64,000 nucleotides of DNA from Candidatus Moraniibacteriota bacterium (GCA_018061645.1 JAGOTT010000003.1:9326-73325), one strand, 5' to 3'; numbered from the stretch's first letter, positions 14,406 through 40,840 are shown. The notes: generated by a model not told the origin, from the sequence alone. Made by a program: numbers and translations.

Positions 14406-14424
14406 TTACGTAACCGGTTACGTA
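14406..14424. promoter_or_regulatory. TTACGTAAC-CG-GTTACGTA dyad palindrome (member of a 7-site family)
   Basis: Perfect palindrome tacgtaaccggttacgta, 60 bp upstream of ATG 14485. Confidence 0.5.
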
Positions 14425-14484
14425 CTTTGTCCCAGCCGCACGGGATGATATACTGGAAAACCGCTAATCATTCTCAAAAAACAT

Positions 14485-14865
14485 ATGAAGGCATTGCTCG
14501 GACTCGCGGTGGCGATAGTGCTCGTCGGCGCAGGATGGTTTCTGTTCCGGGGGGTGACACCGGAGAAGACCATGGCGCCGACTGTCGGACAGGAATCCGC
14601 GTCGACCGGTTCCGTTCCCTCGGAAAAGAAAGTCTATACCATGGGAGAAGTCGCGACCCATAAGGATGCGACGGGTTGTCTCACCGTCATCCGCGGCACG
14701 GTCTACGATGTGACGGCGTTCATCGACAAACATCCGGGTGGCGACAAGAATATCCTCCGGCTCTGCGGTCTCGACGGTACCGCGTCGTTCGAAAAGAAAC
14801 ATGGCGGCCAGGAGAAACCGGAAAACGCACTCAAAGGATTCGATGTCGGTACGCTTGCACAGTAG
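14485..14865 (+). CDS. Cytochrome b5-like heme-binding domain protein, membrane-anchored
   Basis: N-terminal TM plus HPGG heme-ligand motif (FIDKHPGGDKNILRLCGLD...FEKKH). Confidence 0.75.
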   Translation: MKALLGLAVAIVLVGAGWFLFRGVTPEKTMAPTVGQESASTGSVPSEKKVYTMGEVATHKDATGCLTVIRGTVYDVTAFIDKHPGGDKNILRLCGLDGTASFEKKHGGQEKPENALKGFDVGTLAQ

Positions 14866-14900
14866 GTGTATACTGTCGGTGTAATCAGTAAACAAATCGT

Positions 14901-16070
14901 ATGGATACAAGTTCCCTGTCGCAGTATGTCGTGGAACGCGTGAAAGAGGGTGTCACGAAGGCGGAAATAAAGGAGGAGCTTCTCGCGGTCGGTTGGTCGG
15001 AAGAGGAGGCGGACGCGGCGTATCGCGACGGCGTCATCGCGCTTGGCGTTCCCGTTCCGAGCGAAGGGAACCGCCCGACGCTTTCCCGGAAATCCTCGAC
15101 CGCCGATGTCGTGATCAATTTCTTCTCGTTCATCCTGCTCGGTATTGTGGCGACTGCGCTCGGAACGCTCTATTTCGGCATCATCAGCAAGGCGTTCCCG
15201 GATCCGCTCTCCGGTATGGGGTACTACGGCGAGTCGGCCGCGATGAGTTCGATCCACTATTCCATCGCAGCACTCCTCATCGGGTTCCCGCTTTACTACG
15301 CCGCGATGCGCATCTGGTTCCGCAAATTCCGCGAGGACGAAGGCCGGACCGAATCCAAGCTTTCCAAGTGGCTCACGTATCTCGTGCTCCTGGCCGCATC
15401 GGTCACCATCGTCGGCGATCTCATCACCGTCGTCTTCACCTTCCTCCAAGGCGAGATCACCGCACGGTTCTTTCTCAAGGCGTTCACGATCCTGTGTATC
15501 GCCGGCATCATCTTCGGGTTCTACTTCCTCGAACGCAGGAAGATCCAGTACCGGAAGGATATCCCGCGGACGGTGTTCCGGAATTTCGGAATCGCGGTCG
15601 CGACGGTGGTCGCGCTCGGCATCATCCTCGGGTTCTTCGCAGGCGGTTCCCCCGAAACCGCGCGGAAGCGGTCGTTCGATATGCAGCGCGTGAACGACCT
15701 CTCCTCGCTTTCGACCTGTATCGAAAGCTATGCGACCGATCTCGGACAGCTTCCGGGATCGCTTTCGGAACTCGAGCAGTCGAGCATGTATTCGTACTGC
15801 GCGGATTCGATGCTGGATCCGGAAACGGGCGCGGAGTACGGGTACCGTATCATCACGCCGCAGCGGTTGCAGGGGGCGGCGCGTGTCGGGGAGTTCGAAC
15901 TCTGCGCGACCTTTGCGCTTCCGTCGTCCGATTCCGACCGGTCGCCTTACGGCGGTGATGTCTGGAGCAAGCACGGCGCCGGTCGCCAGTGCGACACGGT
16001 CACTGCGCAGCTCGGGACGATCGCTCCGACCATGCCGCAGGGCGGCGTGCCGTTTCCTTCGGTCAAATAA
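14901..16070 (+). CDS. Integral membrane protein (DUF5671-like N-terminal region), function unknown
   Basis: Multiple TM helices, C-terminal soluble Cys-containing region. Confidence 0.55.
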   Translation: MDTSSLSQYVVERVKEGVTKAEIKEELLAVGWSEEEADAAYRDGVIALGVPVPSEGNRPTLSRKSSTADVVINFFSFILLGIVATALGTLYFGIISKAFPDPLSGMGYYGESAAMSSIHYSIAALLIGFPLYYAAMRIWFRKFREDEGRTESKLSKWLTYLVLLAASVTIVGDLITVVFTFLQGEITARFFLKAFTILCIAGIIFGFYFLERRKIQYRKDIPRTVFRNFGIAVATVVALGIILGFFAGGSPETARKRSFDMQRVNDLSSLSTCIESYATDLGQLPGSLSELEQSSMYSYCADSMLDPETGAEYGYRIITPQRLQGAARVGEFELCATFALPSSDSDRSPYGGDVWSKHGAGRQCDTVTAQLGTIAPTMPQGGVPFPSVK

Positions 16071-16092
16071 GCGGTAGCCTGGAACAAAGAAA

Positions 16093-16131
16093 AAGCCCGC
16101 CTCCATTCGTGGGGCGGGCTTCGTTTTTTTT
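16093..16131. terminator. Bidirectional terminator between convergent genes
   Basis: AAGCCCGCC-tccattcgtgg-GGCGGGCTT followed by TTTTTTTT. Confidence 0.6.
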
Positions 16132-16598
16132 CAGCGGCGGGCGTATCCGGCGGGAACGAGCAGTCGTTTCTCTTCGGCATACTCCCATCGTGCGAGTTCC
16201 GGATTGAGTCCGTCGCCGAAAGCCGCGCGGAGCAGTCCTGTCGTCTGTGAGACGGTGGCATATGACGGGCCGATGTCGCCGCCGATCACCGGATGGTACC
16301 GGACCGGACCTCCGGAGTATTCCCGGCAGATGATCTCGTAGAGGAGCGTGTCGAGGACGATGAGTCGGAACAGTTGTTCCACCTGCCCTCGGAACATGAG
16401 GAGGCTCGTGTTTTCCGGAAGCGTGAACGCCACGGCGAGCCACTGGTGGCACCCTTCGGCGATTTCGCCGATGCGCGCTTCGCTGTAGGCGATATGCTCC
16501 GCCACTCCCGACTTCAGGATATTCCGCATGCCCTCCTCATGGGCGATGCGCATGCTCACGTCTTTGGGAGTGAGTTTCATCCGTTCGTAAACGTCCAT
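16131..16598 (-). CDS. Hypothetical protein
   Basis: ORF on the - strand. Start set at MDVYERMKL (track ORF extends to 16661). No recognised motifs. Confidence 0.45.
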   Translation of the reverse strand: MDVYERMKLTPKDVSMRIAHEEGMRNILKSGVAEHIAYSEARIGEIAEGCHQWLAVAFTLPENTSLLMFRGQVEQLFRLIVLDTLLYEIICREYSGGPVRYHPVIGGDIGPSYATVSQTTGLLRAAFGDGLNPELARWEYAEEKRLLVPAGYARR

Positions 16599-16683
16599 TT
16601 CCGCTCTCCTTCGCGTCAAAGTACAGTGTCTCTTTATAGCCTTGGAAAGGCTTCCTGTCAATCCTTTCGGAGATGAACCGTGG

Positions 16684-16689
16684 TATAAT
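16684..16689 (+). promoter_or_regulatory. TGgTATAAT extended -10 upstream of the CrtI-like gene
   Basis: tggTATAATcggg lies 35 bp upstream of ATG 16724. Confidence 0.4.
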
Positions 16690-16723
16690 CGGGATATCGT
16701 TGAACCATAACGGACGGAATCAT

Positions 16724-18211
16724 ATGGACGGAGAAAAGAAGCGCGTCATCGTCATCGGAGCCGGTCCCGGGGGACTTTCCGCCGCGATGATTCTCGCACA
16801 CCGCGGCTACGAGGTGACGGTCTATGAGAAACAGCCTCACATCGGCGGACGGACGTCGTGCCTTCGGGTCGGTGATTTCCGTTTCGAACTCGGTCCGACC
16901 TTCGTCATGCTTCCGCAGATCTTCGAGGAAGTCTTCGCGCTCTCCGGAAAGAAATTCTCCGACTATGTGGAGTGGACGCAGCTCGAGACGATGTACCGCC
17001 TCCGGTACGGGGACGGTCGTGACTTCCGCGTTTTCTTCGACAAGGACAAGCTCCGCGAGGAGATCGCCCGGGTCTTTCCCGGGGACGAGGCGGGATATGA
17101 CCGGTACCTCGTCGCGCAGAAGAAGAAATTCGACCTCATGTACCCGTGCCTCAAGGTGCCGTATCACCGGTGGTACCACTATCTCCGGTGGAAGCTCCTC
17201 AAGGCGTTCCCGTACATGGACAACTTCTCCTCCGTCCACGACGTCCTGGGCCGATACTTCTCCCATGAGGATATGAAGATCTCCATGAGCTTCCAGTCCA
17301 AGTATCTCGGGATGTCGCCCTGGTCGTGTCCCGGTGCCTTCACCATCCTCTCTTATGTCGAGCACGCCTTCGGCATCTATCATCCCAAGGGCGGCGTCCA
17401 TAAGATCCCCGAAGCGATGGCGAGAGTCGCGGAGGAGAACGGCGCCAAAATCGTCCTTGGCAAAGGGGTTTCCAAGGTGCTTGTCGAGGACGGTCGCGCC
17501 AAGGGGGTCGTCTTCGCGGACGGCAGTACCGACCGCGCGGATTTCGTCGTCATGAACGCGGATTTCGCCAAAGGTATGACCGACCTCGTTCCGGAGGAAC
17601 GTCGCTCCCGATGGAACGACAGGAGCCTCGCGAAACGCCCGTACTCGTGTTCCACCTTCATGCTCTACCTCGGGCTCGGGAAAAAATACGACATCCCGCA
17701 CCACAACATCGTCTTCGCGGAGGACTACCGCAAGAACGTGGAGCAGATCTTCGAGTCCGGAACGCTTCCGGGCGACCCGTCCATCTACATCCAGAACGCG
17801 TCCGTGACCGACCCGTCGCTCGCTCCGGAGGGTAAGTCGACGATCTACGTCCTCGTGCCGGTGCCGAACCTCGACACCCCCATAGACTGGGAAAAGGAGA
17901 AGCAATCCTATCGCGACCTTGTCATCAAAAAGATCGCCGAAAAGACCGAACTTTCCGATATCGCCGAACACATCGAAGCGGAGCGCATCATCACGCCCGC
18001 CGACTGGGACCGCGACGCGGACGTCTACAAGGGTGCCGTCTTCAACCTCGCGCATACCCTGGGGCAGATGCTCTATCTCCGCCCGCACAACCGCTTCGAG
18101 GAACTCCCGGGACTCTACCTCGTCGGCGGCGGGACGCATCCGGGGAGCGGACTCCCCACCATCCTCGAGTCGGGGAGAATCGCCGCGGATCTCATCGCCG
18201 AGGAACGTTGA
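16724..18211 (+). CDS. Phytoene desaturase (CrtI) family FAD-dependent oxidoreductase
   Basis: VIVIGAGPGGLSAA dinucleotide-binding motif. CrtI-family architecture and C-terminal LVGGGTHPGSGLP. Confidence 0.8.
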   Translation: MDGEKKRVIVIGAGPGGLSAAMILAHRGYEVTVYEKQPHIGGRTSCLRVGDFRFELGPTFVMLPQIFEEVFALSGKKFSDYVEWTQLETMYRLRYGDGRDFRVFFDKDKLREEIARVFPGDEAGYDRYLVAQKKKFDLMYPCLKVPYHRWYHYLRWKLLKAFPYMDNFSSVHDVLGRYFSHEDMKISMSFQSKYLGMSPWSCPGAFTILSYVEHAFGIYHPKGGVHKIPEAMARVAEENGAKIVLGKGVSKVLVEDGRAKGVVFADGSTDRADFVVMNADFAKGMTDLVPEERRSRWNDRSLAKRPYSCSTFMLYLGLGKKYDIPHHNIVFAEDYRKNVEQIFESGTLPGDPSIYIQNASVTDPSLAPEGKSTIYVLVPVPNLDTPIDWEKEKQSYRDLVIKKIAEKTELSDIAEHIEAERIITPADWDRDADVYKGAVFNLAHTLGQMLYLRPHNRFEELPGLYLVGGGTHPGSGLPTILESGRIAADLIAEER

Positions 18212-24136: not shown

Positions 24137-24161
24137 AACCCGCTTTACACGCGGGTTTTTT
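24137..24161 (+). terminator. Rho-independent terminator (repeated module copy 2), at the left edge of the low-GC island
   Basis: AACCCGC-tttacac-GCGGGTT followed by TTTTTAG, then GTGGGAGAAT. Confidence 0.55.
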
Positions 24162-24186
24162 AGTGGGAGAATAGATATGTAATTAA

Positions 24187-24206
24187 TTACGTAATTCGGT
24201 ACGTAA
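24187..24206. promoter_or_regulatory. TTACGTAAT-tcg-GTACGTAA dyad motif 9 bp upstream of the AbrB-like gene
   Basis: aTTACGTAATtcgGTACGTAAtttcaatcgtATG. Confidence 0.45.
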
Positions 24207-24216
24207 TTTCAATCGT

Positions 24217-24393
24217 ATGGCAAATAAAGCGAAAGACGAAAAGGATGTCAGAAAACTTACCAAGGTCGGGGGAAAATCGATCAGCGTAACCCTGCCGATC
24301 GACATTGTCCGGGAACTGGGGTGGAAAGAGAAGCAGAAGGTCGTCGTGAAGCGTGTCCACGGAGGGGTGATGATCAAGGATTGGAAGAAATAA
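24217..24393 (+). CDS. AbrB/MazE/SpoVT-family DNA-binding protein (58 aa)
   Basis: MANKAKDEKDVRKLTKVGGKSISVTLPIDIVRELGWKEKQKVVVKRVHGGVMIKDWKK shows the swapped-hairpin pattern (K..GGS.SVTLP....LG...G..V). Below the 60-aa cutoff, so absent from the ORF track. Confidence 0.55.
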   Translation: MANKAKDEKDVRKLTKVGGKSISVTLPIDIVRELGWKEKQKVVVKRVHGGVMIKDWKK

Positions 24394-24396
24394 TTA

Positions 24397-24728
24397 TGGC
24401 AACAGCTTGGTTTGAAAAATTTATTGTTCTTTTGGAGAAACTTATACTTTATCCTCCGTACCTTGTATTTCTTTTTGTTGGTGCCCCGATATTGATGATT
24501 TCTCTCATAATGAAGAACTGGACCGAGCCAATCGGGATATTTTTCTTGTATAGTGCTGCTGGTGGGGTATGGCGGTATATTGAGAAAGATTTGGACCATG
24601 GAATTGGAAGTGTTCTTAAAGAAGAGAAAAGTAAAAATATTGCTCATCTTGTAGTTATCTCTGTGTACCATATCGGGAATGTCGGTTTATTTTTGATGCT
24701 ACTGCACTATCTCAACAAAGCCTTATGA
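24397..24728 (+). CDS. Small membrane protein (3 TM), low-GC
   Basis: MATAWFEKFIVLLEKLILYPPYLVFLFVGAPILMISL... Start overlaps upstream and downstream genes, so operonic with mod. Confidence 0.5.
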
Positions 24729-26872
24729 TTCTTTCTGAAAACGAAAAGCGAGACATTATTAAATTTCTGGAAGCTGGGAAACCGCTTCCGGAGAAATATC
24801 GTTTTTTGCTTTTCAAAGATGATCGTGAAGTGGAGCTTGTGTGGAACGGCAAGACAAATGAGGTGACTAATGTTGTTTTGCCTTTTCAAGTAATTGAGCA
24901 GATCGACGAACCACGAGAGGGGAAGGAGTTTGGTGACGCCCGAGGGACGCTCTTTGATATGAGTGGCAAGCAAATTTCAGGCTGGACCAACAAGCTTATC
25001 TGGGGAGACAACAAACTTATTCTCTCGTCTCTCAAAAATGGTCCGATGCGAAAAGAGATTGAGGCACAGGGTGGTCTCAAGCTCATCTATATCGATCCTC
25101 CCTTTGATGTCGGTGCTGATTTTTCTATGGATATAGAAATTGGTGAAGGTGGTGATACTGAGAGCTTTACGAAGAAGCCTTCGGTTATTGAAGAAATTGC
25201 CTATCGCGATACTTGGGGTAAGGGTGCAGATAGCTTCATCGCAATGATTTATGAGCGTCTCAAATTGATGCACGAACTTCTTGCTGAAGATGGAAGCATT
25301 TACGTTCACTGTGATTGGAGATTATCTGGTCACATAAGATTGGTTCTTGATGAGGTATTTGGAAAAGATAATTTCAGAAATGAGATTATCTGGAAGTACA
25401 GTGGAGGTGCAAGTTCTAGCCGGTTTTTTGCTCGAAAACATGACACTGTGTTTTTTTATTCCAAATCAGATAAATACAACTTTAATCAACAGTTTGAAGA
25501 TTTTGCAGAAACAACAATCGCTAGGTTTAATAAGGTTGATGAAAACGGTAGACGGTACAAAGAAAACAGAATGGCTGATGGCAGAGTTTACAATACCTAC
25601 ATGAACGAGGAGGGTAAGCCAGCTACGGATGTATTTGAGTTCAACATTGTGGTTTCAAGTCATGATGAAGCAGTAAAGTACCCGACTCAAAAACCAGAAG
25701 CATTTTTGGAGAGGATAGTAAAAGCATCTTCAAACGAAGGTGATCTGATAGCAGATTTTTTTATTGGTTCAGGTACAACCTTGGCTGTTGCTGAAAAACT
25801 TGGTCGCAAGTGGATCGGTACTGATCTCGGGAAATTTGGTATTCATACTTCGCGTAAGAGGATGATTGGTGTACAGCGTGAACTCAAAAAGGCCGGAAAG
25901 GACTTTCGCGCGTTTGAGATTTTGAACGTTGGTAAATACGAACGTGAGAGCTTCCTCAGTATCAATAGCGACTTGCGCTCAGAAGAAAAAGAAAAACAAG
26001 CACAACGAAAAGAAAAAGAGTTTATCAAGCTCATTCTTTCTGCGTACAAAGCTGAATCCGTGGAAAGTTTTGCAAATATCGTCGGCAAGAAACGGGACCG
26101 TCTTGTAGCGGTTGGTCCTATCAACATGCCTGTATCTCAGAAATTTATCCAAGAAATAGTCGATGAATCAAAAAAGAAGGGCTTCACTAAAGTTGATGTG
26201 CTGGGCTTTGATTATGAGATGGGACTTGTATTTGATGATTTTGTGACGCAAGGTTTGGATATTGCGTTTAAGATTATTCCTCGTGAAGTGTTTGACAAGC
26301 GCGCTGTCGAGCGTGGTCACGTGAACTTTTATGACGTTGCCTACATCGACATAAAGTCGATAGTGACTGGCCGCGGAAATACGAAGGAACTTTCCATTGA
26401 GCTCACTGATTTCTCCGTGTTTTACAATCAAGATTCTTCTGCGACAGAAGAATTGAAAGCCGGAAAATCAAAGGTTGTCGTTCAAAGCGGCCAGGTTATC
26501 AAGATTTCAAAAGATAAAGATGGAAATGAATTGCCGCCCGAAGTTCTCACCAAAAAATGGAGCGACTGGATTGATTATTGGGCAGTTGATTATAATTTTG
26601 CGGATCGAAAAGAAATTATCCGTGTGCCAAAGACGCAAGGGGATAATTTATTTGAGAGAGGAAAGGAACAAAGTCTGCTCGATTACGAAGAGGTTTGGAC
26701 AGGAGACTATATCTTTGATAACGAATGGCAAGCCTTCCGTACCAAGAAGAATCGAAATCTTGAACTGGTTTCTGCTCCAAAAGAACTTCCAAAGGGCGAT
26801 TATAAAGTTGCTGTAAAAGTTGTAGATATTTTTGGGAATGATACTACTAGAGTAATCGATGTGAAAATATGA
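24725..26872 (+). CDS. mod: Type III restriction-modification system methyltransferase (Mod, beta-class N6-adenine/N4-cytosine MTase)
   Basis: Motif IV IYIDPPFD precedes motif I DFFIGSGTT (circularly permuted beta class). Size 715 aa. Adjacent Res helicase-nuclease. Confidence 0.85.
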   Translation: MILSENEKRDIIKFLEAGKPLPEKYRFLLFKDDREVELVWNGKTNEVTNVVLPFQVIEQIDEPREGKEFGDARGTLFDMSGKQISGWTNKLIWGDNKLILSSLKNGPMRKEIEAQGGLKLIYIDPPFDVGADFSMDIEIGEGGDTESFTKKPSVIEEIAYRDTWGKGADSFIAMIYERLKLMHELLAEDGSIYVHCDWRLSGHIRLVLDEVFGKDNFRNEIIWKYSGGASSSRFFARKHDTVFFYSKSDKYNFNQQFEDFAETTIARFNKVDENGRRYKENRMADGRVYNTYMNEEGKPATDVFEFNIVVSSHDEAVKYPTQKPEAFLERIVKASSNEGDLIADFFIGSGTTLAVAEKLGRKWIGTDLGKFGIHTSRKRMIGVQRELKKAGKDFRAFEILNVGKYERESFLSINSDLRSEEKEKQAQRKEKEFIKLILSAYKAESVESFANIVGKKRDRLVAVGPINMPVSQKFIQEIVDESKKKGFTKVDVLGFDYEMGLVFDDFVTQGLDIAFKIIPREVFDKRAVERGHVNFYDVAYIDIKSIVTGRGNTKELSIELTDFSVFYNQDSSATEELKAGKSKVVVQSGQVIKISKDKDGNELPPEVLTKKWSDWIDYWAVDYNFADRKEIIRVPKTQGDNLFERGKEQSLLDYEEVWTGDYIFDNEWQAFRTKKNRNLELVSAPKELPKGDYKVAVKVVDIFGNDTTRVIDVKI

Positions 26873-27414
26873 GCAAAAAAATCGCAAAGAAAAAATTTCA
26901 GCCCTTTGTGCATGACAATCTCGACATAAAAAACGAGCTTCTTCAGCTTGCAAGAAAAGCGAGAGAATCGAAGAGCATTGAGAATGATCTTGCTTCAGTC
27001 CTCATCTATTCGAACATAGCAGAATATTTGGCAGAGCACTTGCTTGATACATTGAGCCATCTTGTTTATAAGAGCTCTTATAATAGTTTTGGAGGGATTT
27101 TGTTTGTCGAGTCTGTGTCACGATCGGGGAAGAAGACACTTAATCAAACAGTGGAAGAGCTTGAGAAATTCAATTTTCCTGATAAGGACGGAATCGTCCA
27201 CTGTTTCAGAAAAATAGCAGATTCTCGGAACAGAATATTTCACAACTTTGCGAAGAGTGATATCAATTCAATAAAGGATCTGCTTGAGAAAGATTTGCCA
27301 GTTATTCAGGAAGAATGTGAAGAAATTATCAACAAAGTGAATACGGTTTATGCTGGTTTGCAAAAGATTTTAGGACAGCAGGAGAATGGCAATGAGAGCC
27401 AGGATGAGAAATAA
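26869..27414 (+). CDS. Hypothetical 181-aa protein embedded between mod and res
   Basis: Translationally coupled (ATGA overlap with mod). No recognised motifs. Confidence 0.55.
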   Translation: MSKKIAKKKFQPFVHDNLDIKNELLQLARKARESKSIENDLASVLIYSNIAEYLAEHLLDTLSHLVYKSSYNSFGGILFVESVSRSGKKTLNQTVEELEKFNFPDKDGIVHCFRKIADSRNRIFHNFAKSDINSIKDLLEKDLPVIQEECEEIINKVNTVYAGLQKILGQQENGNESQDEK

Positions 27415-28245
27415 ATGGGTTCAAGAGAAATTATGAAAAGAATCCGCATCTATTCAGATGAAAGCCGACACAAGAACGAGCGGTTTTTATTGCTTGGAGG
27501 ACTTTGGATTGAGGAAGAAAAAGTGAGGATTGTGGAGGAGCTTATCGGACAGCTGCGAAAGGAGAGTGGGTACACGAGGGATGATGGACAAAGGATTGCT
27601 TTCCTTGGCGAATTCAAATGGAAGAAAGTATCGGATAAGTATATTGCCGTCTATAAGCAGCTTGTCGATATTTTCTTTGATTGTATCGAAAAGGATGCTT
27701 TCCGGTTTTGTGTCATGCTTGTCGATACGCATAATCCGGTTGTTGTGGAGCAGAGCAATATAAAGAAAGAAGGATACTTCAAACTGCTCTACCAGCTCTA
27801 TCTTCACAATTCAAAAATCCCAGCACTCTATCGGATCCACCCTGACAGCATCACAAATCCAGCTCAAGACAAAGTCGATTTTTCGACTCTCGATAAATGC
27901 CTGGATCGGGCATTTCTTAAGAAGTTCTCTCCGCTCGTAAACCCGGCGGATCTCCCTAATGGTAAGGGATTCGTGGAAGAGATCGTTTCGGTGAATTCGA
28001 AAAGTTCCGAATTCATCCAACTTGTGGATGTGGTAATGGGCGGTATCGGATATTTTCAGAATCGTCTTTTTACGAATCCGGATGCGAAGAAGGCGAAGAT
28101 CGAACTTATGAAGTACATTTTTGACAAGCTTATCTATTCCGGGACGATCCAAACAACAGGAAAACGATATATTGTGGCGCGGTCGACAAAATTCAATATC
28201 TGGGTATTTCGACCAAAAAATAAAAAAGACCCTCAAGCTTGTTGA
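27415..28245 (+). CDS. DUF3800-family protein
   Basis: N-terminal IRIYSDESRH (DUF3800 I.IDESG-like motif). Starts 1 nt after the upstream stop. Confidence 0.65.
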   Translation: MGSREIMKRIRIYSDESRHKNERFLLLGGLWIEEEKVRIVEELIGQLRKESGYTRDDGQRIAFLGEFKWKKVSDKYIAVYKQLVDIFFDCIEKDAFRFCVMLVDTHNPVVVEQSNIKKEGYFKLLYQLYLHNSKIPALYRIHPDSITNPAQDKVDFSTLDKCLDRAFLKKFSPLVNPADLPNGKGFVEEIVSVNSKSSEFIQLVDVVMGGIGYFQNRLFTNPDAKKAKIELMKYIFDKLIYSGTIQTTGKRYIVARSTKFNIWVFRPKNKKDPQAC

Positions 28246-28271
28246 GAGTCGCTTTTATGGAGTCCTGAGTG

Positions 28272-28318
28272 CTGGGTCAGTGCCCGGTGTGACATCAGTC
28301 ACAGGAGACGTCACCCAG
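28272..28318. other. GC-rich nested hairpin inside an AT-rich intergenic region (possible terminator or structured element)
   Basis: CTGGGT...TGTGAC-atca-GTCACA...ACCCAG. Confidence 0.3.
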
Positions 28319-28517
28319 TAACTCCACATCTATTATTGCACAGAAGTTGACAAAATACAACAGTTAGCAGTAGAAATAGCTAGAAAATTCTTGAAATAAG
28401 GCTTATAAAAAGCAAATAAATAATTTACAAGGTTAGTTAAATCTTTTATTACTAGCACAAAAATAAATAACTAGACTAATCGCGCGTAAAAGCAATTAAA
28501 CTCATTTTTATTTACCT

Positions 28518-31205
28518 ATGGCTCTCCATAAAGACTTTCCAAAAGATCCATACGCAATTCTCAATCCTGAAATCAGGTGGTTTCCGGCACCTGAAGACCT
28601 GCGAGAAAAGGGGTTTGAGAAGCTTATCCCTCCGCTTGTCGCAGAACTGCGCAAACAAGTGAAGATGTGGCGTGATAATAACTACGATGGAGCAGGTGAG
28701 ACTTCAAAGGCGCTTTTGACATGGTGGTTTAAAGAAGAACACACACTCTATAACAATGATGGTTCTTCGTATAATTTTCGGTACTATTTTTCTCAAAGAG
28801 AGGCACTCGAGACGGTAGTATGGCTCTATGAGGTTGCTCAAGTGAAAGATAAGTACGATTTGATACGATACAATTCCACTGGCGTTCTGAGCCCACAGAT
28901 GTTCACCGAGGATTGGCTTCGATTTGTGATCAAGATGGCTACTGGGGCTGGCAAGACCAAGGTGATGAGCCTGATCATAGCGTGGGCATATTTTCATAAA
29001 CTTTACGAGGAAGGTTCGGGATTAGCTAAAAATTTTCTTCTTATTGCTCCGAACGTTATTGTATTCGAACGTATTAAGAATGATTTTGAAGGAAACAGAA
29101 TATTTTTCCAAGACCCAATATTGCCCGACAACGGCTATATGGGTCAAAACTGGCAGGATGATTTCCAAATTACCCTACACCTTCAAGATGAGCTAAAGAA
29201 TGTCTCTGATACCGGAAATATATTTCTGACGAATATTCACCGGGTATTTGAAAGTGATGTACAGGAATATAGTGTAGACGATGAAGATAGCTCCGAGTAT
29301 TTTCTTGGTGATAAGCCAGTTGCCAAAACCAATGAAGGCACGATTGATTTGGGAATGGTAGTTCGAGATATTGATGAGCTTATTATTATAAACGATGAGG
29401 CACATCATATTCACGAAGAAAATGCGTGGCTCAAATCTATCCGCGACATCGATAACAAGCTGAAACAAAAAGGAGGCGGTCTCGCACTGCAGCTTGATGT
29501 GACTGCAACGCCAAAAAATAATAAGGGCGCGATTTTTGTGCAGACAATTTCTGATTATCCTTTGGTCGAGGCTATTCATCAAAGAGTGGTCAAGCAGCCC
29601 GTGGTGCCAGATGAAGCTAGTCGGGGGAAGCTCGAAGAGGGTCAAAGCGTTGTATTTACTGAAAGATGGAGGGATCATATCAATCTCGGTGTTGAGGAAT
29701 GGAGAAAAATATATAAGCAACTTGAGCCGACTGGAAAGAAATCACTTCTTTTCATAATGACCGATGATACAAAAAATTGTGATGATGTTGCGGAGTATCT
29801 TGAAATGAGTTATCCGGAACTGAAGGATGCTGTTTTGACTATTCATACCAATAAGAGCGGTGAAATCTCCGAAAGCACTACTGGTAGAAATAAAGAAGAG
29901 CTTGAACAACTTCGAAAACAATCAAACGAGATCGATAGCTGGGAAAGTCCGTACAAGGCAATCGTATCGGTCATGATGCTCAAAGAAGGGTGGGATGTGA
30001 AAAATGTGACCACAATTGTTGGTCTTCGTCCTTTTGCTTCTGATAGTAAAATCCTTCCAGAGCAGACATTAGGGAGAGGTTTGCGAAGAATGTACTTCGG
30101 GAGAGATGATATCGATGAATACGTGAGCGTTATTGGTACCCCGGCTTTCATGGACTTTGTCGAGAGTATCAAAGGTGAAGGCGTTGTTCTTGAAAAGCGG
30201 TTGATGGGCGCTGGATCAAAACCAATTTCGCCAATGGTAATTGAGGTTGATAAGGAAAATACCAAGAAAGATATCGAAAAACTAGATATCGAGATTCCTG
30301 TGATGACAGCTCGAATACAGCGAGAGTACAAGAATCTTGTTGATTTAGACGTGTCTAGCTTTGGCAACAGAAAGGTAAAAGTGAAGACGTTTTCCGAAGA
30401 GGAAAAACGAGAGATAGTCTTTAAGGATGTTGTTGTTGAAGAAGTGCATCACACAACTATTTTGAGTGGCGATATTGAGCCGAACTATCAGAGTGTCGTT
30501 GGTTTTTTTGCGCAAGCTATAATGCGCGAAATGCGTTTGTTTGGTTGTTACGATATTCTTTTCGGTAAAGTAAAGGACTTTATTGAGAATAATATGTTTG
30601 AAAGTAAGGTTGAGTTGACTGATCTTAATGTACTTAGAAATCTATCTGAAGTTGAGTACATCAAGCTTATTAAAGACGCCTTTAAGAAAGCTATCAACGA
30701 GCTAACGGTTCAAGATCGAGGGGATACTGAAATTAAAAATTATATTAAAGTTAGTGATGCGAGGCCGTTTGTGGTGAATGATAAGTCATTTCTTGTGCCA
30801 CAAAAATCAGTGTTCAATAAAATTGTCGGTGATAGTAATTTTGAGCTTGAGTTTTCTGCTTTTCTTGAGAAATGTGATGATGTTGTATCATTTGCTAAAA
30901 ACTTTCAAAACAAGGAAGCCAATGCTTTGCGTATTGAGTATAAGAATAGTGAAGGGTTTATCGCCACCTATTATCCAGATTTCTTTGTGAAAGTAAATGA
31001 GAAGAATGTTTATATTGTTGAGACAAAGGGCCGTGAAGAAGAGGATGATAAAATAAAGTTTGAAAGATTAGAGAAGTGGTGTGAAGATGTAAATAATAGG
31101 CAAACAAAGGTTATCTACGGAGCGTTGTATATACAGCAGGAGGACTATGAAAAAAATCCTGCCAATAATTTTAATGAGCTTTTAAGGCTGTTCGGACGAG
31201 TATAA
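28518..31205 (+). CDS. res: Type III restriction enzyme Res subunit (SF2 helicase plus C-terminal PD-(D/E)xK endonuclease)
   Basis: Walker A MATGAGKTKVM, motif II DEAHH, later helicase motifs. C-terminal nuclease-like YIVETKG. 895 aa. Confidence 0.85.
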   Translation: MALHKDFPKDPYAILNPEIRWFPAPEDLREKGFEKLIPPLVAELRKQVKMWRDNNYDGAGETSKALLTWWFKEEHTLYNNDGSSYNFRYYFSQREALETVVWLYEVAQVKDKYDLIRYNSTGVLSPQMFTEDWLRFVIKMATGAGKTKVMSLIIAWAYFHKLYEEGSGLAKNFLLIAPNVIVFERIKNDFEGNRIFFQDPILPDNGYMGQNWQDDFQITLHLQDELKNVSDTGNIFLTNIHRVFESDVQEYSVDDEDSSEYFLGDKPVAKTNEGTIDLGMVVRDIDELIIINDEAHHIHEENAWLKSIRDIDNKLKQKGGGLALQLDVTATPKNNKGAIFVQTISDYPLVEAIHQRVVKQPVVPDEASRGKLEEGQSVVFTERWRDHINLGVEEWRKIYKQLEPTGKKSLLFIMTDDTKNCDDVAEYLEMSYPELKDAVLTIHTNKSGEISESTTGRNKEELEQLRKQSNEIDSWESPYKAIVSVMMLKEGWDVKNVTTIVGLRPFASDSKILPEQTLGRGLRRMYFGRDDIDEYVSVIGTPAFMDFVESIKGEGVVLEKRLMGAGSKPISPMVIEVDKENTKKDIEKLDIEIPVMTARIQREYKNLVDLDVSSFGNRKVKVKTFSEEEKREIVFKDVVVEEVHHTTILSGDIEPNYQSVVGFFAQAIMREMRLFGCYDILFGKVKDFIENNMFESKVELTDLNVLRNLSEVEYIKLIKDAFKKAINELTVQDRGDTEIKNYIKVSDARPFVVNDKSFLVPQKSVFNKIVGDSNFELEFSAFLEKCDDVVSFAKNFQNKEANALRIEYKNSEGFIATYYPDFFVKVNEKNVYIVETKGREEEDDKIKFERLEKWCEDVNNRQTKVIYGALYIQQEDYEKNPANNFNELLRLFGRV

Positions 31206-32024: not shown

Positions 32025-32028
32025 ACGT

Positions 32029-32047
32029 GTACGTAACAAGTTACGCA
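32029..32047. promoter_or_regulatory. GTACGTAAC-aa-GTTACGCA dyad motif abutting ATG 32049
   Basis: Direct reading. Confidence 0.4.
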
Positions 32048-32048
32048 T

Positions 32049-32288
32049 ATGGCGGAATATCCGAACGATGGGAAGCGACATCCTGACCTTTCCGACCTGG
32101 CGCGGGAGATCCTGCAGGCATACGCCCCGGCGTGGCCGGGTATCATGATGTGGCCAGTGCTCGGCATCGTGCTTTTCTGGTATCCGGACTGGAGGAGCAT
32201 CGTCGGGTATTCACTCGTCGTCGTCGGCATCCTGACGCTCATCCGTGTCCGCTGCCCCGGAGAAACCCCGCCGCCCGCGGACAAGTGA
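32049..32288 (+). CDS. Small membrane protein (79 aa)
   Basis: Two hydrophobic helices. Bracketed by two copies of the dyad motif. Confidence 0.45.
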   Translation: MAEYPNDGKRHPDLSDLAREILQAYAPAWPGIMMWPVLGIVLFWYPDWRSIVGYSLVVVGILTLIRVRCPGETPPPADK

Positions 32289-32303
32289 GTGTCTCTTGAA
32301 ACT

Positions 32304-32320
32304 TCGTAACCGGGTACGTA
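32304..32320. promoter_or_regulatory. TTCGTAAC-cgg-GTACGTA dyad motif
   Basis: 15 bp upstream of a 26-codon TM mini-ORF (32335-32415, MMLIAIVAVVVIAGAAVYFAVREGGE). Confidence 0.4.
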
Positions 32321-32603
32321 TACATGAAGAGAATATGATGCTGATAGCTATCGTCGCGGTTGTCGTCATCGCCGGAGCCGCGGTCTACTTCGCGGTTCGT
32401 GAGGGCGGGGAGTGAAGCATGAAAGGGCGAATGGTTTTCCGGGTGGGATTCTTAAACTGTGCAAATTCAGGGGTTGCTTTTTTCGCCGGATGTGCTAGGG
32501 TTCCCTTGCTCTTTGACAATGGAAACATCGTCGCAGCCTGAATAAATGGCGTCCCGTGGTGGGAGGCCAGCTGAAAGAAGAGCGTTTGAGAAGGAGCTGT
32601 ATC

Positions 32604-32933: not shown

Positions 32934-33179
32934 ATGCCACTGCAACCGAAAGACGCAGTCCCAAACGCTTCTGACGATAATCCAAATTTAGGCTGTACAT
33001 TCGTGCGCTCCGATCATGACGATATGATACGGAGCGTTTTTGTATTTGGTCTGGAGAAGAGCGCAAAAGCCAGATACATTTTCCGCTGTCATTGCAAGAA
33101 GATTTGTGCCCGTGGTAGTAAGGTATGCAAACCGTCGAAGGGTCTCTTCCGTCTGTCGAGATACGAGAACAAGCGGTAA
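32934..33179 (+). CDS. Hypothetical Cys-rich small protein
   Basis: ORF with start MPLQPK. Weak support. Confidence 0.35.
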   Translation: MPLQPKDAVPNASDDNPNLGCTFVRSDHDDMIRSVFVFGLEKSAKARYIFRCHCKKICARGSKVCKPSKGLFRLSRYENKR

Positions 33180-33208
33180 CATAATCTCACGGCCGTGAGA
33201 TTATGTTA
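33177..33208. repeat. 32-bp perfect palindrome TAACATAATCTCACGGCCGTGAGATTATGTTA (related to the 23213/23962 elements)
   Basis: Shares the CATAAT..ACGGCCGT..ATTATG architecture. Begins at the stop codon of the upstream ORF. Confidence 0.65.
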
Positions 33209-33268
33209 CCGGCACGTCGGGTTTTTTGTTTGGGTGTATACTTATGGGAGGGGGGCGTTTTTCAGGTT

Positions 33269-33287
33269 ATTACGTAACCGGTTACGT
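33269..33287. promoter_or_regulatory. TTACGTAACCGGTTACGTA dyad motif, identical core to 14406, about 15 bp upstream of the TspO gene
   Basis: Direct reading. Confidence 0.5.
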
Positions 33288-33306
33288 ATATCGATAACAT
33301 GATCCT

Positions 33307-33708
33307 ATGGAACAGATGGAGTGGTATGCGACGCTGATCAAGCCGGAATGGGCACCGCCGGCGTTTCTGTTCGGTCCGGTGTGGACGGTGCTCTATGCGA
33401 TCATCCTCGCGTCGTTCGGGTATGTGGCGTATCTCTTCTGGAAGAAACGGATCCCGTTTCCGGTCTTTCTTCCGTTCGTGTTGAATATCGTTTTCAATAT
33501 CGCGTTCTCGCCGATCCAGTTCGGACTGGAGAACAATCTCCTCGCGGCGGTCGATATCGTGCTCGTGCTCGGCACGCTCGTCTGGGCGCTCATCTCGATA
33601 TGGCCGCGCGTCCGGTGGGCCGCACTCGTCAATATCCCGTACCTGCTCTGGGTGTCCTTCGCGACGGTGCTCCAGTTTACGATCACCTGGCTCAATGATC
33701 TGGCGTGA
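33307..33708 (+). CDS. TspO/MBR (tryptophan-rich sensory protein) family membrane protein
   Basis: LIKPEWAPPAFLFGPVWTVLY...W..LVNIPYLLWVSFA pattern. Confidence 0.7.
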   Translation: MEQMEWYATLIKPEWAPPAFLFGPVWTVLYAIILASFGYVAYLFWKKRIPFPVFLPFVLNIVFNIAFSPIQFGLENNLLAAVDIVLVLGTLVWALISIWPRVRWAALVNIPYLLWVSFATVLQFTITWLNDLA

Positions 33709-33737: not shown

Positions 33738-34100
33738 ATGAAAGCATGCAAGACGGTGGAGGAATATGCGAAGAGCCTGCCCGAGGGGATGCGGGCGGAG
33801 TTCGACGCGGCATGGAAGACGATCCGTGATCTGGTACCGGGCGGTGAGGAGGGGATCCGCTACGGGATGCCGACGATCCGGTTGGGTGGGAAGAATCTGG
33901 TTCACTTCGCGGTCATGAAGGGTCACTTCGGATTCTATCCGACGCCATCGGGTGTCGCGGCGTTTGAGAGTGAGATTGCGGGGAAGTATGAATACTCCAA
34001 GGGAGCTATCCGGTTTTCGATCGGCAAAAAACTCCCACTTCCGCTTATCCGGAAGATCGTGAAGTTCCGCGTCGGGGAAGAGAGAACGAAAAAGAAATAA
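33738..34100 (+). CDS. DUF1801 (YdhG-like) domain protein
   Basis: VEEYAKSLPE...FDAAWKTIRDLVP...LVHFAVMKGHFGFY typical of DUF1801. Confidence 0.7.
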   Translation: MKACKTVEEYAKSLPEGMRAEFDAAWKTIRDLVPGGEEGIRYGMPTIRLGGKNLVHFAVMKGHFGFYPTPSGVAAFESEIAGKYEYSKGAIRFSIGKKLPLPLIRKIVKFRVGEERTKKK

Positions 34101-34110: not shown

Positions 34111-34458
34111 ATGGCGACGAAAGTCTCTACCATCGAATATATCGAGGATCAGCTCGCGGATGTGCCGGGCGTGCGGTCGCGGAAGATGTTCGGCGAGTAT
34201 GCGCTCTATGTCGGGGACAAGGTGGTCGCGCTCGTGTGCGACGATACGCTCTTCGTGAAGATCACGGAGGAAGGGCGGGTGTTCGTCGGAGAAGCATACG
34301 AGGAGGGGTGCGCGTATCCGGGGGCGAAGCCGTCGATGCGGATCGACGGGGATATGATCGAGGATCGCGCGTGGCTCTCCGAGCTCGTCCGTATCACCGA
34401 TCGGAATGTGCCGGAACCCAAACCGAAAAGGAAGCGCGGTGCGGGCGGTCGTGAATGA
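34111..34458 (+). CDS. TfoX/Sxy N-terminal domain protein
   Basis: RKMFGEYALYVGDKVVALVCDDTLFVK matches TfoX_N. Confidence 0.7.
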   Translation: MATKVSTIEYIEDQLADVPGVRSRKMFGEYALYVGDKVVALVCDDTLFVKITEEGRVFVGEAYEEGCAYPGAKPSMRIDGDMIEDRAWLSELVRITDRNVPEPKPKRKRGAGGRE

Positions 34459-37125: not shown

Positions 37126-37223
37126 AAGCATTCGTTCTCCGGAAGCTCCATGAACTCGAAACGAGCGCAACCGATCGGGGATAGGGGCGATGCGCGCTCG
37201 GCGGAACTGCTGAACCGAAACAT

Positions 37224-38377: not shown

Positions 38378-38479
38378 ACTATACGACTGGGTACGTATCT
38401 CCTTTCGGAGAACGGAAACTTTGGACGGACGCGTGATTTTTTGGTATCCTTCCAAGACGTAATCCGAAATGTATTTCCT

Positions 38480-39262
38480 ATGGAAAAGAGTGAGTCGTCC
38501 GTGGCGCCGAAAGAAACGAAGGAATCGAAGCCGGTTGAGAAAAGCGATGCGAAGAAGCCGGCGGTCGCTTCGGAACCGGAGCCGGTGGGCGAAAAGACGG
38601 TGAAAAGAAGGAAGAAAAAAATCGATCTGAAAAAATATCGGAAGCCGGCGATGATCGCGGCGGCTCTCCTTGCGGTACTCGGCGCGGCGTATCAATACAA
38701 GGGAGTGTTCATCTCGGCGGTAGTGGACGGGACACCGATCAGCCGCTTGAGCGTCATCCGTGAGCTCGAAAAGCAGGCCGGATCTCAGGCTCTCGATCGG
38801 CTCATCACGAAGAAGCTCGTCGATGCGGAGGTGGCTCGGAAGAAGATCGTCATTTTTCCGGCGGATATGGATGCGGAGGTGAAGAAAATCGAGGATTCGG
38901 TGATAAAACAGGGAGGGACGCTCAAAGAGGCTTTGGATCAGCAGGAGATGACGGAGGAGGATCTCCGGGAGCAGCTGCTGTTGCAGAAGCAGCTGGAGAA
39001 GATCCTCGGGGACAAGATCGATGTGACCGATGAGGACGTGGCACGGTATGTGGAACAGGGCGGAGGCGCCGCTCCTGCCGGGCTGAGCGAAGAGGAGTTC
39101 AACGACCAGATCCGCGAACAGCTCAAGGGTCAGAAATTCAATGTCGAAGTCGGGAAATGGATAACGGCCGCCAAGGCGAAGGCGTCCATCAGCTACTATG
39201 CCGGATATGCCGCCGAGACGGAGACCGTTCTCGTGGAGAGCGAGAATCCGCAGGTGGAGTAG
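38480..39262 (+). CDS. Membrane-anchored SurA-N-terminal-domain-like chaperone-like protein
   Basis: Lys-rich N-terminus, TM, then SurA_N-like helical region (ISRLSVIRELEKQAGSQALDRLITKKLV). Confidence 0.5.
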   Translation: MEKSESSVAPKETKESKPVEKSDAKKPAVASEPEPVGEKTVKRRKKKIDLKKYRKPAMIAAALLAVLGAAYQYKGVFISAVVDGTPISRLSVIRELEKQAGSQALDRLITKKLVDAEVARKKIVIFPADMDAEVKKIEDSVIKQGGTLKEALDQQEMTEEDLREQLLLQKQLEKILGDKIDVTDEDVARYVEQGGGAAPAGLSEEEFNDQIREQLKGQKFNVEVGKWITAAKAKASISYYAGYAAETETVLVESENPQVE

Positions 39263-39309
39263 ATATTTTTCCGGAGCGTCAAAATAATTCCATATTTTTC
39301 CTGAAAAAA

Positions 39310-39537
39310 ATGCCTATGAAACACATGCAACGATCTTTGATCCAGTATTTCGCGAAGAATTTCGGCATCGCCGTGGGATTGGTCGTCATCTGGCGGGGGA
39401 TATGGCATATCCTCGATTGGATCGATGCCAATATGCTTGGCGGGAATATCCTGTGGACCGCGATCGGCGGTATCGTCGTCGGACTCGCGATCCTCTATCT
39501 TCCCGATAAGGACCTGAAGGAACTCGAGAAGCTGTGA
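39310..39537 (+). CDS. Small membrane protein (75 aa)
   Basis: Two TM helices. Overlaps next gene start. Confidence 0.4.
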   Translation: MPMKHMQRSLIQYFAKNFGIAVGLVVIWRGIWHILDWIDANMLGGNILWTAIGGIVVGLAILYLPDKDLKELEKL

Positions 39538-40106
39538 GCATCCGACCGGAAACGAAAGCGGTGTCGAAAAAGGCGATCGTGTTTCTGGTCGTCCTTTTCG
39601 CGGTTTTGTTCGGCGCCGACCGACCGACGCGTGACAAGTTTCTTGAAATCGCGCTCGATCCGGTGCCCGTCGAAGAGGACGTTTCCGGGTATCCGATCGT
39701 GAAGGTGACCGATGGGGACACGATCCGGGTTCTTATGGATGGACAGGGAGAGACGCTCCGGCTTATCGGGATCAACACGCCGGAAACGGTCGACCCGCGC
39801 CGTCCGGTCGAGTGTTTCGGCAGGGAGGCTTCGGAGAGGGCGAAGGAAATCCTTTCCGGTTCGCGCGTCCTGCTCGAGAGCGACCCGACGCAGGGTGATC
39901 GTGACAAGTATGGGCGGCTCCTGCGATATGTCCTGCTTCCGGACGGGACGAATTTCAATCGGAAAATGATCGAGGAGGGGTATGCGTACGAATATACGTA
40001 CGGCGCCCCGTATCGGTACCAGGCGGAGTTCGAGGAAGCGGAACGGAGCGCGCGGGAGGCACGGCGCGGGTTGTGGTCGGAAGAGATATGCGGCGGTCAG
40101 CGGTAG
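39534..40106 (+). CDS. Secreted/membrane-anchored thermonuclease (staphylococcal nuclease, SNase fold)
   Basis: N-terminal TM. TDGDTIRV...RLIGINTPE...YGRLLRYV conserved SNase residues. Confidence 0.8.
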   Translation: MSIRPETKAVSKKAIVFLVVLFAVLFGADRPTRDKFLEIALDPVPVEEDVSGYPIVKVTDGDTIRVLMDGQGETLRLIGINTPETVDPRRPVECFGREASERAKEILSGSRVLLESDPTQGDRDKYGRLLRYVLLPDGTNFNRKMIEEGYAYEYTYGAPYRYQAEFEEAERSAREARRGLWSEEICGGQR

Positions 40107-40140
40107 AAGGTATCGGATGGTAACGCGTATTTTTTCTCAT

Positions 40141-40827
40141 ATGGCGAGTTTCAGAACTCATATTTCTTTCGGTATCGCGGCAGGCATAGTCGGTGCGATC
40201 GTCCTTTCCGCGCTTTCGATCGTCGATGCCCCCGGAACGATCCTGGCTGCGGTTGTCGCACTGGTGCTCGGATCGATACTGCCGGACATGGATAGTGATT
40301 CCGGTATACCGTTTCATGTTGCTTTCGGCTCATTTTCCTTGGTTTCGTGCGCGCTCATTTTCATGTCTTCATACGAAAAAACCCCGTCCGATTGGCAGGG
40401 GAATATCGTCACGGCGCTCGGGGCGTCGATTTTCGTCTGGGTCGTCGTCGGGTATGTTTTCAAGCGGTTTACGAAACATCGCGGTATGGCGCATTCGATT
40501 CCGGCGGCGCTCCTGTCCGGGCTCGTGACGTTTTTCGTCGCGTCACGGTTCTCGTTTTCCGATCCGGAGGCGTTTCTTCTCGGAGTCGCCATGACATCGG
40601 GGTACCTCGTCCACCTCGTACTCGATGAGGTCTGGGCGGCGGTCAATTTCCACGGAATCCCGTTCATCCCGAACAAGGCGCTCGGAAGCGCGCTCAAGGT
40701 GTTCTCTTCCTCGACATTTTCGAACGTGGTCGTATATGGCGCGATATCGTTCCTGCTCCTCGGGAACATGAACCGCCTCTCGCCGCTTTTCGAGACGTTC
40801 TGGTCGCAGGTGTCACGGGTTACGTAA
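40141..40827 (+). CDS. Membrane-bound metal-dependent hydrolase (YdjM/DUF457-like)
   Basis: Multi-TM with conserved His residues (HRGMAHS, HLVLDE). Confidence 0.6.
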   Translation: MASFRTHISFGIAAGIVGAIVLSALSIVDAPGTILAAVVALVLGSILPDMDSDSGIPFHVAFGSFSLVSCALIFMSSYEKTPSDWQGNIVTALGASIFVWVVVGYVFKRFTKHRGMAHSIPAALLSGLVTFFVASRFSFSDPEAFLLGVAMTSGYLVHLVLDEVWAAVNFHGIPFIPNKALGSALKVFSSSTFSNVVVYGAISFLLLGNMNRLSPLFETFWSQVSRVT

Positions 40828-40840
40828 CAGGGTACGTAAC
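40819..40840. promoter_or_regulatory. GTTACGTAAC-agg-GTACGTAAC tandem palindromic dyad motif overlapping the stop codon of the 40141 gene
   Basis: Direct reading. Confidence 0.4.

Follow-up and report, generated by a model that had tools for sequence, protein, structure and literature searches.

The 64,000-nucleotide stretch of DNA analysed here (hereafter, the window; JAGOTT010000003.1:9326-73325 of assembly GCA_018061645.1, Candidatus Moraniibacteriota bacterium) contains a family of short palindromic boxes, set in arrays with a 12-bp period, and the gene for a 58-residue SpoVT/AbrB-domain protein that starts where one of these arrays ends (Table 1). The window has a guanine–cytosine (GC) content of ≈58%, with a 41% GC island at ≈24.15–31.25 kb. 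The AbrB-like gene lies in this island as the first gene of a tightly packed, co-oriented block, with gaps or overlaps of 2–4 nt in the open reading frame (ORF) coordinates. No toxin gene adjoins it in the window; the next genes are those for a 110-aa membrane protein and Mod, the latter belonging to a type III restriction–modification (R-M) system. All of the analysis was done on sequence, and the loci encoding related proteins came from other metagenomes and metagenome-assembled genomes (MAGs), none of them from a cultured organism; loci from other genomes are designated by L numbers.

Table 1. Box arrays, predicted promoters and neighbouring genes in the window (positions counted from its first nucleotide).
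Feature	Position	Strand	Context or evidence
Three-unit array GATATGTACCTT, GTTACGTAACCG, GTTACGTAC	14393..14426	+	15 bp after Ogt-like gene, 59 bp before cytochrome b5-like gene
Predicted promoter TTGTCC-16-TATACT, TG extension	14427..14454	+	directly downstream of boxes
Cytochrome b5-like protein with N-terminal transmembrane segment; putative target	14485..14865	+	Pfam PF00173, E 7.5e-17
DUF5671 membrane protein	14901-16070		after cytochrome b5-like gene
Predicted promoter TTTACA-17-GAGAAT, TG extension	24144..24172	+	ends 2 bp before first box
Putative autoregulatory array GATATGTAATTA, ATTACGTAATTC, GGTACGTAATTT, (CAATCGTA)	24174..24216	+	reaches ATG of AbrB-like gene
58-aa SpoVT/AbrB-domain protein, proposed regulator	24217..24393	+	Pfam PF04014
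110-aa membrane protein	24396-24728		second gene of the regulator's operon
Type III R-M/defence block	24725..31205	+	co-oriented behind the regulator, in the 41% GC island
Mod	24725-26872	+	
HepT-like RNase	26869-27414	+	
DUF3800	27415-28245	+	
Res	28518-31205	+	
Two-box site TGTACGTAACAA, GTTACGCAT	32028..32048	+	3 nt after stop of PD-(D/E)XK gene, abuts ATG at 32049
79-aa membrane protein	32049-32288		downstream of site 32028
Two-box site ACTTCGTAACCG, GGTACGTATACA	32301..32324	+	before 26-codon transmembrane mini-ORF (32335-32415)
Two-box site ATTACGTAACCG, GTTACGTATATC	33269..33292	+	15-18 nt before TspO gene
TspO	33307-33708		
DUF1801	33738-34100		after TspO
TfoX_N	34111-34458		after DUF1801
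Decayed site ACTATACGACTG, GGTACGTATCTC	38378..38401	+	~78 nt before ATG (38480) of SurA-N-like gene
Two-box site GTTACGTAACAG, GGTACGTAACTC	40819..40842	+	overlaps YdjM stop codon (gene ends 40827)
Convergent 86-aa gene	40854-41114	minus	ends 12 nt from site 40819

Six of the sites share a core, CGTAAYNNGKTACG (CGTAAY-NN-GKTACG), found at 14409, 24190, 32032, 32305, 33273 and 40823. Shuffles of the window (n = 100) gave an expectation of 0.02, and a count of six was reached in none of them. The exact box TTACGTAA occurs four times (0.29 expected), and a weight matrix derived from the sites scored above 12 nowhere else in the 64 kb, apart from the sites and the extra boxes that flank them. An earlier, sequence-only reading of the window had reported a family of seven palindromic sites, far more than expected by chance, and had asked whether the motif was as frequent inside coding regions. 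The excess is confirmed, and all six core sites are intergenic or at gene ends. The seventh member, described as weak and placed at 38388, fails in the window itself, where box 1 carries two mismatches and a 2-bp deletion and the site falls below the matrix threshold. In L058, however, where the flanking genes are 78–86% identical to those of the window, a perfect GTTACGTAACCCGTTACGTACC precedes the same SurA-N-like gene (L058:3412); because this site occupies the orthologous position, we take 38388 to be a decayed true site. The site given as 32304 is real, but its register is best set at 32301–32324 (ACTTCGTAACCGGGTACGTATACA).

Paired TACGTA cores are always 12 bp apart, and the window sites can be described as arrays of two to four TTACGTAA boxes with a 12-bp period. 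A third unit, GATATGTA, is found one further period upstream at the sites at 14405 (unit at 14393) and 24186 (unit at 24174). The structure is equally readable as a single palindrome of 14–20 bp, (T)TACGTAAC-NN-GTTACGTA(A).

The protein encoded at 24217–24393 matched PF04014 (MazE_antitoxin, SpoVT/AbrB domain) over residues 16–53 (E = 1.1e-7), scoring 32.1 bits where the gathering cut-off is 24.7, and gave a weak match to doc_partner (NCBIfam TIGR02609). Its homologs form a family of 165 proteins of 57–59 aa that are 60–86% identical, most of them precomputed as PF04014; those members that have a source name are all from Moranbacteria or Patescibacteria. Residues R12, K13, G18, S21, T25, P27, W36, E38 and Q40 are invariant in the family, and R32 nearly so. 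Searching PDB sequences with the profile of the family returned nothing meaningful, and a fold search was therefore needed. The AlphaFold2 model (predicted local distance difference test score of 77.9) has a β-β-α-β-β topology, with strands at residues 13–16, 22–25, 42–47 and 50–55 and a helix at residues 28–34. When this model was compared with the PDB by Foldseek, the best matches were MazE, the AbrB N-domain and SpoVT; the top six, all MazE and AbrB N-domain structures, had probabilities of 0.66–0.93 and TM-scores (template modelling scores) of ≈0.5, with weak E-values for what is a small domain. By its predicted structure, then, the protein is a member of the AbrB/MazE fold class. Alignment to the N-domain of Bacillus subtilis AbrB by hhalign (probability 67%) paired R12 with AbrB R8 and R32 with AbrB R24, while AbrB R15 fell at a four-residue insertion (GGKS) and AbrB R23 was opposite V31; R8, R15 and R23/R24 are the AbrB positions that we take to contact DNA. 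The protein stops at residue 58, just past the last strand of the domain (residues 12–57), leaving no toxin-binding C-terminal tail.

The connection between this protein and the boxes comes mainly from its homologs. We examined 80 metagenomic loci that encode homologs (L117–L196), together with L114–L116 and L199, and scored as a hit TACGTA-N6-TACGTA with at most two mismatches within 110 bp upstream of the homolog gene. Such an array was present at 53 of the 80 loci, and most of the remainder had an array with the same 12-bp period built from a variant box, TAAGTA, TACTTA, TTCAGTAATTAA or TTACACGTGTAA. Arrays were also present before the homolog gene in L034, L101, L114, L116 and L199; in L034 and L101, the boxes precede a small AbrB-like gene that has no toxin partner. 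The homolog arrays consist of two to four boxes, the last of which lies 0–12 nt from the ATG. When all distinct arrays in 656 kb of loci were considered, 34 of the 65 were directly before the regulator gene, the other 31 being spread among all other genes. Furthermore, the sequence of the boxes co-varies with the presumed DNA-binding loop of the protein: a K-S-G-NGS loop goes with TTCAGTAATTAA boxes in three separate lineages, and the KHS and RVS loop variants go with TTACACGTGTAA boxes.

At the AbrB-like gene, a sigma-70-type promoter with an extended −10 element is predicted before the first box and the array runs from there up to the ATG, which is the classical layout of an autorepressor, with the operator over the transcription start. 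Repression from tandem palindromes in this position is a classical mechanism. In 24 of the 65 arrays, a −10-like TAnWAT preceded the first box by no more than 13 nt, compared with 3% at random positions. At the cytochrome b5-like gene the array abuts the −35 of a predicted sigma-70-type promoter (one found at 14427–14454 against 0.2 expected in shuffles), and it is kept in the syntenic relative L197. An interpretation of the boxes themselves as −35 and −10 elements of an extracytoplasmic function (ECF) sigma factor or sigma-70 promoter was abandoned, since their spacing did not fit.

We consider it likely, at about 85%, that the sites are operators bound by a protein. The AbrB-like 58-aa family is, on the sequence evidence, the probable binder, although we hold this with distinctly less assurance. 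The suggestion of the sequence-only reading that the sites serve one transcription factor is thus supported, and the protein encoded after site 24186 is the candidate. The analysis shows the motif family and its statistics, the position of the sites between genes, the nearly universal array before the regulator gene and the fold of the protein; that this protein binds the boxes, represses from them and answers to a signal is what we infer, and the mechanism would be as follows. Dimers of the single-domain AbrB/MazE-fold protein would bind arrays of two to four boxes, probably cooperatively. The array at the protein's own gene would fill the space from the extended −10 to the ATG, so that bound protein would block RNA polymerase and repress both the regulator and the type III R-M operon behind it. 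The boxes at the genes for cytochrome b5, the 79-aa membrane protein, the transmembrane mini-ORF, TspO-DUF1801-TfoX_N and the SurA-like protein would place these under the same regulator.

The association with R-M and other defence genes is not confined to the window. The homologs in L116 and L199 head a type I system, and among 45 distinct genes found immediately downstream of homologs, at least 15 code for restriction enzymes or methylases; these cover types I, II and III and include C5, N4/N6 and D12 methylases and TaqI- and Eco47II-like enzymes. Other genes directly downstream encode RadC (five cases), T5orf172, an AbiEii-like ATPase and DUF3800. A RhuM-Fic gene can bear its own box array (L121), and several relatives have two homolog copies per locus. 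The Res gene of the window has 74% DNA identity to that of a 44% GC Moranbacteria MAG (L023), in which a box pair likewise follows. The regulator either marks a hotspot for the insertion of defence genes or travels with such genes as their controller; the low GC content of the window copy favours the travelling controller for this genome.

Most sites lie 0–90 nt before start codons. In other Moranbacteria, boxes precede genes for TspO and MsrA (both L148), TfoX_N (L142), a homolog of the transmembrane, Cys-rich protein of the mini-ORF (L141), thermonuclease (L146) and UvrA (L089), as well as Nudix, rhodanese and RhuM-Fic genes and paralogs of the regulator; in L189 they lie 40 nt before a homolog of the Pif1 helicase, a gene that in the window begins ≈360 nt beyond site 40819. 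The sequence-only reading had placed the sites upstream of small membrane-protein genes and proposed a membrane or envelope regulon. In the window most targets are indeed small membrane proteins, and site 40819, between convergent genes, is not upstream of a membrane gene; the regulon implied by the relatives is broader, extending to MsrA, thermonuclease, Pif1, UvrA, TfoX_N, Nudix and RhuM-Fic. The density of about one site per 10–20 kb would correspond, by inference, to tens of sites in a genome of ≈1 Mb.

Orthologous sites are kept in the close relatives L037, L058, L110 and L197, and in distant Moranbacteria boxes recur before TspO, TfoX_N, Pif1 and the transmembrane, Cys-rich protein. MAGs that are 82–89% identical to the window keep the TspO, mini-ORF and 40819 sites; the mini-ORF site is found in L037, the TspO boxes in L037, and site 40819, with three boxes, in L058 and L110. 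Several of the MAGs with 82–89% DNA identity to the window and a common gene order are titled “uncultured Bdellovibrionales” (CAYRYX01: L037, L058, L067, L073, L077 and L098; CAYVDI01: L022 and L110), and this taxonomic label looks wrong. For two of the genes, conservation proved patchy. The boxes of the cytochrome b5 gene are present in two of five orthologs (the window and the 90%-identical L197) and missing from three more distant ones, and TspO is directly preceded by boxes in three of five close orthologs, with none in L151 and L134.

This patchiness, from which it follows that the regulon beyond the autoregulatory site is labile, is one of several points that weigh against the proposed mechanism. 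At ≈10–15% of the homolog loci (e.g., L115, L122, L128, L154, L155 and L171), no array could be recognised. Simple promoter occlusion does not explain the boxes that lie upstream of a −35 (14393–14426; L089), nor those between convergent genes (40819 and its orthologs; L077). The regulator gene is in the 41% GC island and the other sites are in native 58% GC DNA, and a paralog encoded outside the window could be what binds the GC-rich native sites. A RhuM-Fic gene adjoins the homolog in at least 12 loci, mostly upstream, so that an antitoxin-like role is possible. Finally, the putative link between protein and boxes consists of co-location and co-variation.

The same palindrome is also found in quite different settings. 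A scan of GTDB with one genome per species and the pattern TTACGTAACNGGKTACGTA matched more than 113 loci, which fall into four classes: LacI-family/GH13 loci, MarR-GNAT loci, matches inside tsaD of the Candidate Phyla Radiation (CPR), and intergenic sites in Moranbacteria MAGs. The scan is informative only for the CPR relatives, the rest being mostly operators of other phyla and coding matches in tsaD. LacI-family genes of Bacillaceae, Chloroflexi and Actinobacteria follow the form with a CCGG centre, TTACGTAACCGGTTACGTA, which GH13 genes adjoin as well; the form with a CTGG centre, TTACGTAACTGGTTACGTA, stands before genes for MarR-GNAT fusions in Flavobacteria and Oceanospirillales. In other phyla, the identical 19–20-mer TTACGTAACYGGTTACGTAA presumably serves two regulator families, unrelated to each other, as an autoregulatory operator (L001–L113; examples are L002, L007, L035 and L059, and L006, L009, L036 and L069). 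The LacI-type genes with TTACGTAACYGGTTACGTAA lie beside oligo-1,6-glucosidase genes in Bacillaceae, and the MarR-GNAT fusion with TTACGTAACYGGTTACGTAA in Flavobacteria and Oceanospirillales has 320 aa. N-termini beside the motif in Bacillaceae that had at one point been taken for MerR-like turned out to be of the LacI family. The use of one palindrome by the LacI-type and MarR-GNAT proteins appears to be convergent, and these cases show that such a sequence is plausible as an operator, though of unrelated regulators. In nine CPR genomes, the motif LRN(R/Q)LRN of TsaD is encoded by TTA CGT AAC CRG TTA CGT AAC, a full double box within coding sequence (L012:2675, L014:804, L019:6607, L022:1231, L026:1632, L042:674, L067:1729, L085:7549 and L092:452). 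It employs the rare leucine codon TTA in genomes of 45–56% GC, and the flanking codons vary synonymously; since these loci were found with an exact pattern, their invariance is partly due to ascertainment.

The main alternative to the AbrB-like protein as binder is a different transcription factor, of which the AbrB-like gene would merely be the most conserved target. The indirect nature of the apparent link between protein and boxes, the location of the window's AbrB-like gene on a foreign low-GC island and the homolog loci without boxes are all compatible with this. However, no other DNA-binding gene is linked to boxes across the loci (a PaaX-like neighbour recurs once, 5.7 kb away), the box variant changes with the loop of the AbrB-like protein, and autoregulation usually shows itself in an operator at the promoter of the regulator gene. 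We therefore regard a different factor as unlikely. More specifically, the sites might be operators of a LacI-family or MarR-GNAT regulator like those whose genes follow TTACGTAACCGGTTACGTA and TTACGTAACTGGTTACGTA in other phyla, but neither the annotated window nor the examined surroundings of CPR sites contained such a gene. LacI-family operators are 16–20 bp palindromes that typically have a central CG, whereas the central four nucleotides here are CCGG, TTCG, CAAG or CAGG (central pairs CG, TC, AA, CG, CG and AG), and arrays of three or four boxes and the set of target genes are a poor match to sugar catabolism. That the sites are operators of a regulator of either family is extremely unlikely.

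Other readings do not treat the boxes as protein operators. Dispersed palindromes of the repetitive extragenic palindromic (REP) kind, or attachment (att) or other recombination sites flanking mobile defence islands, are suggested by sites 24186 and 32028, which enclose the low-GC R-M island together with one further gene, by the box pair after the related Res gene in L023, by the two sites at convergent gene ends, and by the arrays just after tRNA-Gln genes in L135 and L181. Against this, the array is tightly tied to one small DNA-binding gene, most sites are promoter-proximal and stay at orthologous positions in relatives, and the annotated window has no recombinase or RAYT-type gene beside them; we consider such a role quite improbable, though somewhat less so for the sites at the two ends of the island. 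A role in RNA, as a hairpin in the 5′ untranslated region affecting the stability or translation of the mRNA, is very improbable. Adjacent palindromic boxes can pair, many arrays are downstream of a −10 and would hence be transcribed, and two segments fold better than their shuffles (24170–24219, z = −2.9; 40814–40848, z = −2.1). Four of the six window sites, however, do not (z = −0.6 to +0.2), some arrays are upstream of the predicted promoter or between convergent genes, and the variant arrays that are direct repeats of the non-palindromic TAAGTAATCAAT (×2) cannot pair (L158, z = −0.4). The sequence-only reading had offered as another possibility that the sites are promoters for leaderless mRNAs, and this we can practically dismiss. 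It is true that several ATGs adjoin the last box (32049; L034; L116) and that the box-associated genes have no Shine-Dalgarno sequence. The distance from box to ATG, however, varies from 0 to >60 nt (in the window 2, 11, 12, 18 and ≈60 nt, the third being 3 nt if counted to the first ATG, of a four-codon ORF), without the fixed spacing of ≈7 nt between a −10-like element and the start codon that leaderless promoters would show, and the boxes are unlike −10 or −35 elements, separate −10 elements being predicted at their flanks. A Shine-Dalgarno tetramer, even loosely defined, was found within 20 nt of the start in 11 of 53 predicted window genes and is absent from the other 42. The genome of the window thus seems to initiate translation largely without such sequences, and their scarcity, being genome-wide, is uninformative about leaderless mRNAs.

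Some further observations concern the surroundings of the sites. Upstream of the TspO boxes, by ≈60 bp, is a perfect inverted repeat with a 17-bp stem, CGGTAACATAATCTCACGGCCGTGAGATTATGTTACCG (33174–33211), with no convincing gene there. TspO and a CrtI-like oxidase had raised the idea of a light or photo-oxidative regulon (LitR/CarH/PhrR), which was rejected since no MerR/B12 gene was found. A three-box array in L084 (1269–1304), a MAG labelled Saccharibacteria, ends one base before a tRNA-Pro gene, and in the two Moranbacteria loci with tRNA-Gln genes (L135:13745; L181:5428) the array lies 8–22 nt after the 3′ end of the tRNA gene. Window proteins also include DUF192 and T2SSE, besides DUF5671; these and others, with the names that databases give to identical proteins, assign the window to Candidatus Moranbacteria, a lineage of the CPR. 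The GC skew stays negative or close to zero over the first ≈20 kb and is consistently positive from there on, and beyond 20 kb nearly all genes are on the plus strand; this shift could reflect a rearrangement boundary, or a place where replication starts or ends. The annotated window ORFs included no dnaA. A reading of the boxes as parS-like or origin-proximal sites, based on their likeness to GTT..ACGT..AAC and on the skew change, was discarded, because the sites lie close to promoters and neither partition genes nor dnaA came to light.

The proposed AbrB-like regulator can be compared with several known systems. AbrB of B. subtilis, an autoregulated repressor of many scattered genes, resembles it in fold class, in two aligned Arg residues and in small size. 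Sequence similarity is remote, however, and AbrB has 94 aa and a C-terminal multimerisation domain and, to our knowledge, no crisp consensus site, whereas the present protein, at 58 aa, consists of little more than the domain itself and has a sharp box and 12-bp arrays. The AbrB-type antitoxins (MazE, AbrB-type VapB, PrlF) share with it the Pfam domain, the structural matches to MazE, palindromes at their own promoters and, in those loci with RhuM-Fic, a neighbouring gene of the Fic/Doc family; they differ in that the present protein is without a toxin-binding tail, its boxes occur at many unrelated genes, and the Fic gene, where present, is usually upstream. In predicted layout, there is a parallel with the C proteins of R-M systems, small autoregulated DNA-binding proteins that head R-M operons and have boxes over their own promoter. 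The C proteins are helix-turn-helix (Xre-type) proteins that act on C-boxes, and we know of no other genomic targets for them, while the present protein has the AbrB/MazE fold, heads many R-M types as a single family, and has boxes also at housekeeping and stress genes. The met boxes of MetJ (AGACGTCT) are likewise arrays of two to five short ACGT-centred palindromes, presumably bound by one dimer each and cooperatively; MetJ is a ribbon-helix-helix protein whose boxes repeat every 8 bp and which controls one metabolic regulon, and it has no homology to the present protein.

Members of the CPR, or Patescibacteria, have tiny genomes, and our literature search returned nothing on gene control in this group; it likewise gave no relevant account of the boxes, of patescibacterial AbrB proteins or of R-M controllers of the AbrB type. 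A bolder interpretation, which we put forward as a tentative possibility and by no means as the expected outcome, is that a single conserved mini-regulator of AbrB fold acts in Moranbacteria as a portable controller heading many unrelated operons, both of R-M systems (of types I, II and III) and of other defence genes (RadC, Fic, DUF3800), and that its arrays have spread to dozens of host promoters and to the coding double box of tsaD, putting defence genes and host stress and envelope genes on one switch. If true, the R-M C proteins would have an analogue without a helix-turn-helix, and the CPR its first defined global regulon. The AbrB-like protein as repressor at the boxes, if correct, would already provide a defined operator and a cloneable 58-aa protein, testable in vitro without culturing, and a means of predicting which genes are co-regulated in MAGs of Moranbacteria (TspO, cytochrome b5, MsrA, nucleases, helicases and small membrane proteins), and it would possibly represent a new class of regulator for R-M operons. 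The analysis offers a first look, from sequence, at a probable regulatory network in a group for which none has been described.

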